A stretch of 64,000 nucleotides of DNA from Protoeuglena noctilucae (lineage: Eukaryota): NCBI GenBank assembly GCA_958009085.1, contig OY253679.1, positions 62,001-126,000 on the forward strand, in the 5' to 3' direction. The number at the start of each line of letters is the position of its first letter. Positions within the stretch are counted from its first letter, which is position 1. Of the stretch, positions 12,483 to 16,462 are shown one piece after another. Both the position numbers and the translations under genes were made by a program. The notes beneath the pieces were generated by a model that was not told where the DNA came from, did no database searches, and was given only the letters and a program-made list of their open reading frames with translations.

Positions 12483-15400
12483 ATGGAGGCCGAGTCGCCC
12501 GTCGCTGGCGCCTCGAGGGCCCCTCAGTACGAGGTGGAGACGACGGCGAGTGCCGCTAGGCCCGCAGTGCCGCATCCGCCCCCGACCGCGCGCTTGTCAC
12601 CTGTGCGTGTGCCTTGCGCGACCTTCCTCTGCCTTCCGTGGCTGGCCGCAGCTGGCCGAGCGCTGCACGTGGCGATGGCGTTGGGTCCGCTCCTGGCTCG
12701 ACAAGACCATCAATCAGCTGGTCAAGGAGGTAGAGCGAGACGAAGATCTGGGTGAGGAGGAGCCGGGGGATCCGGGAGAGGAGGAGCCGGGGGATCCGGG
12801 CGAGGGGGAGCTCAGTGAGGACTTTGACGTCGGTGATACAGGGATTGAGTGGGTTGGCGGGTCGGTGTGCCCGCTGTTGCGCCCGTGGGAGTTGCGGCAG
12901 ACCTGCCGCGGCGGCGGCGAGGGGGAGGGGGCGTGGGTGCGCACGTGGTGGCCGGCCCGGAGGTGGCGCGCGGCCTTTCTGCCGGCTTACCGCGGGTTTC
13001 GTCCCGCTGTCCCGCCCGAGTGCCCTGCCGCCATCTGGGTACGCGGGCCCGGGCCCCCCGCCGCGGACAAGAGGGTGCGCTGCGCGGCTGGGGCCGCATT
13101 CGTGGCCCTCGCCGAGACGGGCCACGTGGCCTGCCCCTTTGCGGGGGGCTGGGCCGCACGCAGGGCGGGGACGGACGCCCCGCAGGTTGACCCCGCCCAC
13201 GTCGCCGCCGCTGACCTCGCCGCCGCGGCCCTTGAGGGGGCCGTGGAGGCGGTCCTGGGCAATGGCGACGCTGGCGAGGGGGATCCTACCCTGCGGTCCG
13301 TGCTGGACGCCGCGCAGGGCCGCCTGAGGGGCGCTGGCGACCATGCGCAGGCGCTCCTTGCAGACGGGCTGGGGCTCCTGCTGTGGGGGCCAGTCCAGGA
13401 TGGGGACCAGGACCTGGCAGCCGAGCGCGTGGCCGGCGGGGCCGTTTTGTCATGCAGGCTCCCCACGGCCCCGCCGGTCATTCACGGCGCTGTCTGGGTT
13501 TGGGGAGCGGGTGCCGGGGTGGCCGTGACGCACGTGCCCCGCCAGCTAGCCAACGCGGCGGTCGCCGCGGCTCAACGCTGCGACGGGGCCCCGCAGATCG
13601 TCCAGGAGGGGGAGGATGATCGCCTGTTGGGCAAGTGCTGGTGGCTGCTAGACAAGGGCGTGCCTCTGCCTGTCGCCCTTGCGGTGGCGGCGGACCAGAA
13701 TGCGCGCGGCGCTGCAATCACTGGCCGGCGTGCGGGGGGCCGGGAGCGAGCTGGAGCCAGAGGCGCAGGCGGGTTGCAGGGTGGCGGATACGACCACGTC
13801 GGGGCGGCGGGAGAGGGCGCCCTTACTCCAAGGCCGCAGCCGGGGTATTTTGACAACGCGAGCACTTCGATAGTCCTCGTGCTCCGGTGCAGCTCCGGCC
13901 TGCAAGCCTCCATTGGCATGTCGCTCCCGCGCCAGTGCCGGGCCTTGTGGCGGTGTATTGTGCGGGCGCGTCTCTGGTGTGCAGAGGCTTCCGTGGAAGT
14001 CTGCACGGTGTCCACGGTGGGGAATAGGACGGCGCTGCACGAGCGCACGGGGCTGCTCGATGCAATCCCGCCAGCTTTGCCGCGTTCCGGGCCTCGGCCG
14101 GTCACGATCCTGGCCAGCAACCCTTCTCGCCTCACGAGGAAGATGACGGAGATGATGGACCTCGCCAGTCGGGAAGGCGTGCAGCTGGCTTTCCTGGCCA
14201 TCGATGAGGTGAGCCGCACGAGAGATGCGCCTAACCATCACGAGACGTTACCATCTGCACCCATTCGTGCACACCCGCCCCTCCTTTCGTCGGTCGCTGT
14301 AGGAGGACTTTGCGAACCACGGCGTCGTGCGCGTGCTCCAGATGCCGGGCCGCACGCCCGTGGGCGTCGGGTGCGTCCCCGCGCTGCCCGTGACGGTGGA
14401 GGAGCTGAGGCGGCATTTGGAGCGCATTTCTAACCAGCAGACGAGTGATTACAGGCTCTAGACTGTCCTGAAGTCAGCGATGCTGTAGCACGGCATCAAC
14501 ATCAGCACAGCATCGCTGCGCCCGTGGCATCAGCGAAGTCGTGGGGGTTGGGGCATGTCGCTCGAGGGGCCGCAATGACTTCCAATCGCCTCCTCTCCCC
14601 AGGTCAGCCAAGCGTTTTATTACAACATGCACTTGGCCATGCAGCAGTTGGTGGTCTCTGAGGCGGGTTTGGGGGGCGGAGTTGGCAACAACTTCCAATC
14701 GGTGCGCGACGCTCTGGGGGGGATGGGGCAGCGGTTCATCATCCTGACCCGCATCTCCCCCGGCAACGTGCGAACACGCCGTGGTGCAACGTTAACTTCC
14801 CACGACCGTCAGCGGTCTGTGGGGCGCCTTGTGATCCCACCCGATGCCCCCTATCGCGAGGTTGTGTTGACTTTTGTGCCGGCGACCGTGCGCCCGCGTG
14901 TTGGTGGCGTGGAGGTCACGACTGAGGTAGTTGAGGCACTCCGCGTCGCCATCATGGACCACGCCTGGGGCGGGAACGGCAAGGCCGTCGTGGTCGCCGC
15001 CAGTGTTGACCGCCTCTGCCGGGGGCCCCAGGCGCTCACGGCGCTCCGAGACATGGCGTTGGAGATGGGGGTGGACGTGGTGGCACTGTTCGCGCGTACT
15101 GGTGATGTGGCCAGCGTCGATGTCTCATGGCGCTGCGCACTAGGCCTCGCGGGGGACGGGGAGGCAGCGGGCGAGGTGGAAGGAGGTGGCGCGGTGGTGC
15201 CACCTGTGGGCCATGCGGCATTGCGGCCACGCCTGGTTGCCGGGCCTGGCCTTGGCGACCGTGTCCCGGCGCGTCTAGTCTCTGCGACCGAGGCGGAGGT
15301 GGTGGACGGGGTGGACTTCCTCACTGCCGCGGCGGACGGGTCGATGGGGTACCGCAGCACTGAGAGGCCTCCTCGGCACATGATCCGGGAGGGAGAGCGT

Positions 15401-16462
15401 GGGTTGAGATACGGGGCTTTGCTGGATTCGATTGTAGACTTCGCCGTTGATGGCGTGGGGGGGGAGGGGCGGAGGGAGTTGCGAGATGCCCTCAACCGCT
15501 TCATGCTCCGAGCAAAGCGCATGCCCGACAACGTTGTGCAGAAGATGCGCTTCAGTGTCGAGGATGGTCCCCGCTGCGCCAACACCACGGGACGTGCCGC
15601 AGCTCTCGTGCGACGGTATCGTTGCGGCCTGTGCGGGCAGGAAGGTCACAACCGCATCACGTGCCCCGACAGGCCCCGCGACGGTGGTGAGGGGCAGGGT
15701 GGTGACCGGGGCGAGGGGAGCAGCAGCGAGGGGAGCAGCAGCGAGGGGAGCAGCAGCGAGGGGAGCAGCAGCGAGGGGAGCAGCAGCGAGGGGAGCAGCA
15801 GCGAGGGGAGCAGCAACGAGGGGAGCAGCAGCGACGAGCAGGGCAGCGGTGGGCGACAGGAGAGTCCTGGGGGATTTGGGCGTGCCGGTGCACGGGGCGA
15901 TGGCAGCAGTGAAGGGGCCGAGGGCGACCAGCATGGCGGCGTTGGCGCGGGCGGACTGCATGAGGGCACTGTCCGCGGCCGCGGCGCCGGCCGTGGCCCC
16001 AGCCGATGCGGCCACTGCGGTGGATTTGGTCACAACGTTCGGGGGTGCCCCGACCGTCGTGGGCGTCAAGATGCGGGGGGCGAGGCTGACGGCACGACCG
16101 CCAGACCAGCCAAGCGCGGGCGTGTTCGGGGGGCAAGTGGCGGTCGCGGGGGCGCTGGAGCCGGTGCGGGGGCCAACACAGAGGGGGGCGAGGGGGTGGG
16201 GCACAGGTCGAATGCGCCGCGCAGCAGGGGCCGCGTCCACTGCACGAAGTGCGGACTCCCAGGCCACAACAGCCGGACGTGTAAGGGCATACCCCTCGAA
16301 GACGACGGGTTCGTGGACGACCGGTCCGTGGCGCAGCAGCGGAGGTTCGCGTCCAACGCCCGGCACCGGCACAGGGAGCGCGTGGATGCCCAGGCCGTGA
16401 AGAGCGCGCCGGAGTCGAGTGATGCTGAGAGCGACGCCGGCCAGGAGCAGGGTGGGGCGTAG
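12483..16462 (+). CDS. Putative protein of about 1200 aa with two tandem serine-recombinase (resolvase/invertase)-like domains and three CCHC zinc knuckles; third donor site appears mutated
   Basis: Inferred exons 12483-~12545, 12652-14208, 14303-14440, 14603-16462, all phase 0. Domain 1: IVLVLRCS..SLPRQ..ERTGL..ILASNPSRLTR..EGVQLAFL. Domain 2: FIILTRIS..SHDRQ..VVVAASVDRLCR..MGVDVVAL. Knuckles CGLCGQEGHNRITC, CGHCGGFGHNVRGC, CTKCGLPGHNSRTC. Confidence 0.7.
15713..15832 (+). repeat. Coding minisatellite, 8 x 15 bp (GAGGGGAGCAGCAGC = EGSSS)
   Basis: Directly visible tandem array with one A variant (EGSSN). Confidence 0.95.

Follow-up and report, generated by a model that had tools for sequence, protein, structure and literature searches.

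Two consecutive open reading frames with a suggestive resemblance to serine-recombinase catalytic domains in a nuclear contig of Protoeuglena noctilucae

The serine recombinases of Pfam family PF00239 (Resolvase), among them the Tn3/gamma-delta resolvases, the Hin/Pin invertases and the phage serine integrases, have a catalytic domain in which a hydrophobic strand, an R-x-S motif, a further strand, a (D/S)RLxR element, a helix and a G-V strand follow one another. The staphylococcal SCCmec element carries two adjacent and co-oriented genes of this kind, those of CcrA and CcrB, whose products are thought to cooperate; the two are clear paralogues and full-length large serine recombinases of a bacterial element. 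CCHC zinc knuckles, for their part, occur in nucleic-acid-binding proteins such as retroelement Gag/nucleocapsid, CNBP and the Air1/2-type proteins. Here we describe a locus of P. noctilucae in which features of both kinds of protein may come together. It lies in a stretch of 64,000 nucleotides (nt) of GenBank assembly GCA_958009085.1 (contig OY253679.1, positions 62,001 to 126,000 of the forward strand; hereafter the window) and consists of two open reading frames (ORFs), ORF-A and ORF-B, each with a block whose resemblance to a resolvase catalytic domain is suggestive and unproven. The only serine recombinases that we found described in eukaryote-associated elements are of the IS607 type, in a few giant-virus, protist or algal elements according to PMC3627910; PMC6188088 is a further paper on this subject. 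Their transposase TnpA begins with the DNA-binding part, and the catalytic domain follows on its C-terminal side (PMC4058570). A full-text literature search linking serine recombinases, zinc knuckles and eukaryotes gave nothing relevant, its single match being unrelated.

Block 1, at the C-terminal end of ORF-A, and block 2, at the N-terminal end of ORF-B (Table 1), carry strings like the elements of the PF00239 enzymes in the order given above. Unlike those enzymes, the blocks score below the family cut-off and show no recognisable central motif, helix E or recombinase DNA-binding domain, and the ORFs are eukaryotic nuclear genes with a spliceosomal intron. The terminal position of block 1 recalls IS607-type TnpA, including the eukaryotic and giant-virus copies that occur with Fanzor2, but the locus differs from these in its flat sequencing depth, in lacking element structure and in giving no NCBIfam match at E ≤ 10 with the three pieces searched; the IS607 model of that collection, NF033518, detects real IS607 TnpA above its cut-off in 13 of 81 genomes. 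Among the neighbours none like TnpB/Fanzor was found. In contrast to CcrA and CcrB, the two blocks are not detectably alike, and neither ORF protein has the rest of a recombinase. ORF-B shares with CCHC-knuckle proteins three canonical CxxCGxxGHxxxxC motifs with Gly/Arg-rich and acidic low-complexity linkers between them. It differs from them in lacking a Gag, protease or reverse-transcriptase context and in that no relative of its N-terminal 330 residues turned up in an exhaustive phmmer search.

The motif strings that an initial annotation of this DNA had read in the two blocks are all present at the positions it gave. A regular expression for the ordered signature, written post hoc, had just two matches when all six frames of the window were translated, at 13876 and 14741, and none in 40 simulated windows; the core of the pattern is likewise confined to these two sites in the window. 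In Pfam, PF00239 was the sole match of either block (block 1: E 0.13, 12.8 bits, profile positions 5-100 of 145; block 2: E 0.16, 12.5 bits, positions 62-99). As controls we used 150 random 125-residue pieces, drawn from 375 non-overlapping pieces of six-frame open frames of at least 125 residues with the plus strand of the locus excluded; none matched PF00239 at E ≤ 10, while about 10 showed some unrelated spurious Pfam match at E ≤ 0.16. The Resolvase search that had been proposed as a check of the annotation thus returned the only family signal for both blocks, at scores below threshold.

Custom recombinase profiles were assembled from PinE, PinR and YbcK of E. coli K-12 from 80 genome loci, and from further genome loci found with PF00239 and NF033518, with sequences filtered at 60-70% identity (the word-index relatives of PinE, all at least 84% identical, were useless for a profile). 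They were then scored, with filters off, on 777 overlapping pieces of the window as controls (780 pieces including the targets). With a mixed profile of 21 sequences the short and long pieces of block 2 scored 5.7 and 5.0 bits and block 1 scored 5.1, against 3.1 for the best control; with a profile of 17 large recombinases the figures were 7.7 and 6.9, 3.5, and 1.4; and with a profile of 41 small, large and IS607 recombinases they were 8.7 and 8.0, 7.8, and 0.6. A narrow Pin-family profile of 13 sequences gave 4.2 / 3.6 bits for block 2 and 2.4 for the best control. Both blocks outscored all 777 controls in three of the four profiles, and in the window they rank as the best matches to recombinase profiles. 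The lead over the controls was widest with the broadest profile, the trend across the four not being strictly monotonic; a margin that widens with broader profiles would be expected of distant relatives. Both blocks align the same profile columns, around D-R-L-x-R, and this element with the ensuing helix and G-V strand was aligned by three custom profiles and by hhalign, in which block 2 took ranks 1-2 of 303 pieces (probability 14-18%, P 0.0013-0.0019; 300 of the 777 pieces serving as controls). Shuffling the blocks, 5000 times for either one, never produced a score of 7.8 bits (maxima 7.2 and 6.5). In whole-ORF scans with filters off, and with the narrow Pin-family profile, the blocks were not conspicuous; only the length-matched pieces were. 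As for the N-terminal part of the domain, the R-x-S strings are present in the sequence, as LRCSSGLQ...SLPRQ in block 1 and TRIS in block 2, and the spacing S-S-x-x-Q ... S-L-x-x-Q of block 1 is in register with the Q..Q columns of the family.

Partly independent support for block 1 came from a protein language model. The ESM Atlas, in which the stored ORF translations are present letter for letter, was queried with them, namely with residues 505-627 of P0001 for block 1 and residues 1-110 of P0002 for block 2, the latter without the first strand. For block 1 the top three feature matches were Resolvase clusters (0.90, 0.90 and 0.89), 24 of the 30 matches belonged to such clusters, and the four best structure rows were likewise Resolvase, with template modelling (TM) scores of 0.28-0.36. 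The structure rows for block 2 mixed CN-hydrolase, DUF7869 and Resolvase (TM 0.52 and 0.51). In the AlphaFold and Foldseek check that had been suggested for each block, the single-sequence models were unusable, with mean confidence (pLDDT) of 41.4 and 33.5, and Foldseek returned noise, the poorly modelled block 1 giving no match against the PDB at E ≤ 0.001 and no resolvase among the matches listed. A sequence search of the PDB gave nothing relevant. The initial annotation would have been abandoned if neither a profile nor a structural match to the resolvase fold were found; the sub-threshold matches and the unusable models speak clearly neither for nor against it on that count.

Contigs of three RNA runs (X1-X3) and one DNA run (X5) were mapped onto positions 11300-17500. 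The sole RNA joint inside the locus, 14206->14301 (cut +2), defines a 94-nt intron with GT..AG borders; the donor at 14209 is the one that had been predicted, but the acceptor lies 300 nt upstream of the one required by the original model, which had spliced out 14209-14602. Past the observed acceptor the frame runs for 52 codons to the stop TAG 14459-61, and the first ATG of the long frame downstream is at 14627. Because of this RNA-supported intron, the stop and the later ATG, the locus reads as two consecutive plus-strand ORFs, ORF-A (about 12630-14208 plus 14303-14461) and ORF-B (14627-16462), and not as one fused gene. By codon log-likelihood, for which 11 Pfam-supported coding pieces from the window served as training set, frame 1 of the plus strand is the best of the six at about 12660-14190 and frame 2 across most of ORF-B. 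RNA-library contigs are collinear with the DNA over 12570-14189 and, within ORF-B, over 14733-15273, 15786-16130 and 16262-16510. ORF-A and ORF-B might share one transcript, and bicistronic transcripts are on record for green algae (PMC11291117). Leaky scanning as a route to ORF-B is disfavoured by the exonic ATGs, at least 14 of them, from about 12570 to 14627.

The beginning of ORF-A is of an unusual kind. Frame 1 is open from 12286 and contains no ATG until 13918, so that about 540 codons (12286-13917) lack one despite strong coding statistics; the stretch 12628-13917 translates into a product with 0% Met and 4.2% Trp, where the training genes have 1.5% and 1.3%. Translation might start in an upstream exon, at a non-AUG codon or in some other way. 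The start at 12483 assumed by the initial annotation lies in frame 0, which codon log-likelihood favours weakly at 12390-12570, while the long ORF is in frame 1. Since X1 and X3 contigs are collinear over 12570-12865, no intron there links the two frames, and a search for an intron leading from the ATG at 12483 into frame 1 gave none that is plausible, all candidates being of 34-67 nt or of the wrong phase; that start is therefore not upheld. Contigs of X1-X3 are absent from 12335-12541, which has no bearing on the 5' end.

Searches for relatives were carried out at the protein, metagenome and virus level. A phmmer search of 1.84 billion representatives, with the residues of ORF-B that precede knuckle 1 as query, returned only P0002 itself and three repeat-protein artefacts; word-index protein searches with parts of ORF-A returned only P0001, that is, ORF-A itself; and scans of viral contigs found no relative. 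The lone metagenome match (locus L101, 4941-5429) was rejected as spurious, being off-frame (QCRALWRC) in a bacterial gene whose product, a multi-pass membrane protein of 592 residues, resembles a cation/proton antiporter. This match illustrates how short Arg/Cys/Trp-rich strings turn up again in wrong frames.

The locus was also examined for the marks of a mobile element, the initial annotation having proposed a transposase as one option and a check of copy number and shared ends. In the one DNA run the depth across the ORFs is 256, as in the flanks, except at a low-complexity repeat; no direct or inverted repeats framing the locus were found; and there is no paralogue within the window. As judged from this run and from the window, the locus behaves as a single-copy host locus and not as an active element, because depth is flat and neither framing repeats nor a paralogue are present, and to that extent the transposase proposal finds no support. 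Four contigs of X5 match the locus in part and then diverge, at 12122, 13160, 15319 and 15651, and 9 of the 29 mapped contigs are only 95-99% alike and add a small extra depth; such contigs could be diverged partial copies, a second haplotype or another strain.

That both blocks derive from a serine-recombinase catalytic domain and have strongly diverged is the reading that we prefer, and we would place it just short of an even chance. It retains the central claim of the initial annotation in part: Resolvase is the only family signal, and both blocks top the 777 controls in three of four profiles, but every score is below threshold and the custom profiles align only 31-37 residues. The fuller form of that annotation, in which the two resolvase-like domains and the knuckles belong to a single spliced polypeptide that acts as a pseudo-dimeric serine recombinase, the transposase of a mobile element, is very improbable. 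The two ORFs do lie on the same strand and share frame 2 after the observed intron, an in-frame GT at 14396 with an AG at 14601-02 could in principle remove the stops, and RNA-library contigs over the spacer (X1 with a depth of 3.87 in the bin 14405-14611, X2 also with depth there) would allow one transcript. However, the second intron 14396-14602, which would fuse the ORFs in frame, was considered and rejected, being devoid of RNA support, and no joint skipping the stops at 14459, 14486 and 14576 is listed in any of the four runs. The X2 bin means of 5.86, 2.67 and 2.69 fit a spliced contig made of about 14137-14208 and of 14303 to about 14518; from these bin depths, rather than from a listed piece, the contig appears to continue past TAG 14459-61 without a second joint. 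The tandem, single-chain arrangement is thus contradicted by splice and stop, and the flat depth and the want of framing repeats, of a paralogue in the window and of viral or metagenome relatives speak against its transposase part.

For a chance resemblance, the main rival, we would put the odds somewhat below even. ORF-B would then be a lineage-restricted CCHC protein binding RNA or single-stranded DNA, ORF-A an unrelated orphan gene, and the blocks short high-information motifs picked by eye in the Arg/Leu/Ala/Val/Gly-rich translations of GC-rich DNA. Several findings weigh on this side and against a recombinase origin. The family scores are all sub-threshold, those with PF00239 being about half the curated cut-off of 23.3 bits; the whole ORFs have no Resolvase match in Pfam at E ≤ 1; and NCBIfam (three pieces) and PHROGs (five pieces) gave no match at E ≤ 10. 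The local custom-profile alignments span only 31-37 residues, comprising a strand, (D/S)RLxR, a helix and the G-V strand, and in block 1 the family's Asp before R-L-x-R is replaced by Ser. Block 1 came only 12th (0.0 bits) with the narrow Pin-family profile and was 12th of 303 in hhalign (probability 1.4%, P 0.035), and in the ESM Atlas it stands at lead level by the tool's own rating (143-146 shared features), block 2 having no usable feature match. The N-terminal and central sub-profiles were not significant: the R-V-S/Q..Q sub-profile placed block 1 in the right register with -1.1 bits, rank 17 among 380 rows, and did not pick up the TRIS of block 2, and the central one (D..SG....RP.L) found neither block, the ranks being 26-153 with other parts aligned. 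Helix E (A..ER....ER) is not recognised, the profile alignments ending at the G-V strand, because adding the downstream exon or 50 more residues of ORF-B leaves the score unraised, and no DNA-binding domain of the HTH_7, Recombinase/zinc-ribbon or MerR-type helix-turn-helix (HTH) kind matched any piece in Pfam at E ≤ 10. The blocks show no detectable similarity to one another, the protein, metagenome and viral searches gave no relative for either ORF, and [DS]RL.R taken alone occurs 13 times in the six frames of the window where 17 would be expected. If translation of ORF-A begins at the ATG at 13918, the putative catalytic serine would even fall outside the protein. Against chance stand the two independent sub-threshold matches, within 1 kb of each other and on the same strand, which single out one and the same family among the 24,736 of Pfam, the absence of PF00239 matches in the 150 controls, the scores of both blocks above all 777 controls with a margin widest in the broadest profile, the shuffles, and the language-model search, which does without the Pfam model and likewise yields Resolvase for block 1. 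The chance probability per piece is about 5e-6 by Pfam statistics and about 1e-4 by shuffles, and for a pair of such pieces no more than 1 kb apart on one strand of a single window it is roughly 1e-7 to 1e-5, which is unlikely. Yet the blocks were chosen for this very pattern, and the per-piece values have to be weighed against a very large scan: over about 250,000 windows scanned by a motif-attuned reader such a pair is not negligible by chance, and at p of about 1e-4 per piece a handful of adjacent pairs would be possible.

If the blocks do descend from serine recombinases, a homology that is presumed here from motifs and profile scores, they would be catalytic-domain remnants taken up from a mobile element or a virus and now standing within single-copy, intron-bearing host genes. 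The knuckles of ORF-B may bind RNA or single-stranded DNA, substituting for the HTH or zinc-ribbon domain of known recombinases, and the two proteins might act together. Canonical strand exchange, with attack of the serine on DNA in a tetramer held by helix E, seems rather unlikely, because only R-x-S and (D/S)RLxR are recognisable, and not the central motif or helix E. A special case of the diverged-recombinase reading, and an unlikely one, is that the products of ORF-A and ORF-B combine, as its two subunits, into a functional heteromeric serine recombinase adapted to eukaryotes. Each would then supply one minimal catalytic module (the R-x-S serine and the DRLxR arginines), the CCHC knuckles of ORF-B would stand in for the HTH or zinc ribbon, and the pair would have been domesticated for host DNA rearrangement or would be the last copy of an undescribed class of eukaryotic elements; an intron-bearing nuclear serine recombinase of this kind would be without a described counterpart. 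Were both blocks real recombinase modules, the locus would provide the first case in a eukaryote of a nuclear, spliced pair of recombinase-derived genes coupled to zinc knuckles, and a lead to a new element class or to a domesticated DNA-rearranging enzyme. Were the resemblance due to chance, what is left would be an ordinary orphan zinc-knuckle gene and a reason for caution in reading short catalytic motifs in GC-rich translations.

Table 1. Features of the locus, in positions of the window
Feature	Position	Strand	Details
Frame-0 ORF	12483..12755	+	90 codons from ATG 12483 (ATG list); no joint to frame 1 seen
ORF-A, main exon, frame 1	12630..14208	+	frame open from 12286, 715 codons
Block 1, C-terminal end of ORF-A, frame 1	13867..14205	+	VLVLRCSS, SLPRQ, RTGL, SRLTR, GVQLAF in order
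Spliceosomal intron	14209..14302	+	joint in a single X2 RNA contig (depth 4.89), 72 letters on its shorter side
ORF-A, last exon	14303..14461	+	frame after acceptor; codon log-likelihood favours frame 2 at 14250-14430
Spacer between ORFs	14462..14626	+	stops 14486 and 14576 in shared frame; X1 and X2 depth in 14405-14611
ORF-B	14627..16462	+	611 codons, first ATG to TAG 16460-62
Block 2, N-terminal end of ORF-B, frame 2	14735..15090	+	IILTRIS, SHDRQ, VRPRV, DRLCR, GVDVVAL in order
CCHC zinc knuckle 1	15623..15664	+	Cx2Cx4Hx4C; zf-CCHC_2 E 1.6e-4, 21.9 bits vs cut-off 27
Tandem repeat, 15 nt, 8.3 copies	15711..15834	+	Ser/Glu/Gly-rich linker; Tandem Repeats Finder
CCHC zinc knuckle 2	16007..16048	+	Cx2Cx4Hx4C; zf-CCHC_6 E 1.3e-3, 19.0 bits vs cut-off 22
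CCHC zinc knuckle 3	16241..16282	+	Cx2Cx4Hx4C; zf-CCHC_3 E 0.03, zf-CCHC E 0.071; 13.7 bits vs cut-off 20.8

In ORF-B, block 2 is followed by a region predicted to be helical at low confidence and then by the three knuckles, which the initial annotation had placed correctly. All three fit the pattern exactly, with Gly after the second Cys and before the His, and their Pfam scores lie below the cut-offs of very short models. The linkers that separate them are low-complexity sequences, Ser/Glu-rich and Gly/Arg-rich. The stored protein P0002, which comes from another record, lacks five of the repeat units (25 residues), while in the rest 517 of 518 residues are the same; the difference in length reflects either a polymorphism or an assembly collapse.

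The window has a G+C content of about 68% and is eukaryotic; RNA-library contigs contain three GT..AG or CT..AC joints and the genes around the locus encode ankyrin, kinase, beta-helix and hydantoinase domains. The region 12200-16800 is contained in full in four runs labelled 'organism A' and is partly present in contigs of four marine metatranscriptome runs (0.60, 0.36, 0.20 and 0.10 of the sampled words). The flanking genes are on the minus strand, with CT..AC joints at 11882/11986 and 17010/17143, and the locus is therefore bounded at about 12.3-16.65 kb; the neighbouring minus-strand ORFs gave no noteworthy family match. A perfect 22-nt inverted repeat joins 11930-11951 (+) and 12416-12437 (-) within 59-nt arms that are 78% complementary, where none is expected in 100 shuffles. 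One arm lies inside the 103-nt minus-strand intron 11883-11985 and the other directly upstream of ATG 12483, between two divergently oriented genes, and the repeat may represent a promoter element common to both or else a small repeated element.

Further away, ordinary host genes for an amidohydrolase, a hydantoinase/oxoprolinase, a protein kinase, a Krr1 KH domain (23.1 bits, just below the cut-off of 23.4) and ABC_membrane_2 (weak, sub-threshold matches) are found at 45474-45848 (-), 48822-53564 (-), 8332-8706 (+), 62089-62463 (-) and 1838-2962 (-), respectively. A long open frame at 9309-11372 (+) encodes a right-handed beta-helix domain (Pfam E 9e-32) built of 144-nt (48-residue) repeats. 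An HNH endonuclease domain is encoded at 61008-61382 (+) in this nuclear window (HNH_5 E 7e-15, HNH E 3e-13). The ankyrin-repeat coding segments at 20768-22653 and 27482-28876 form a large inverted duplication with nine arm pairs, 71-96% complementary and about 5-8 kb apart.

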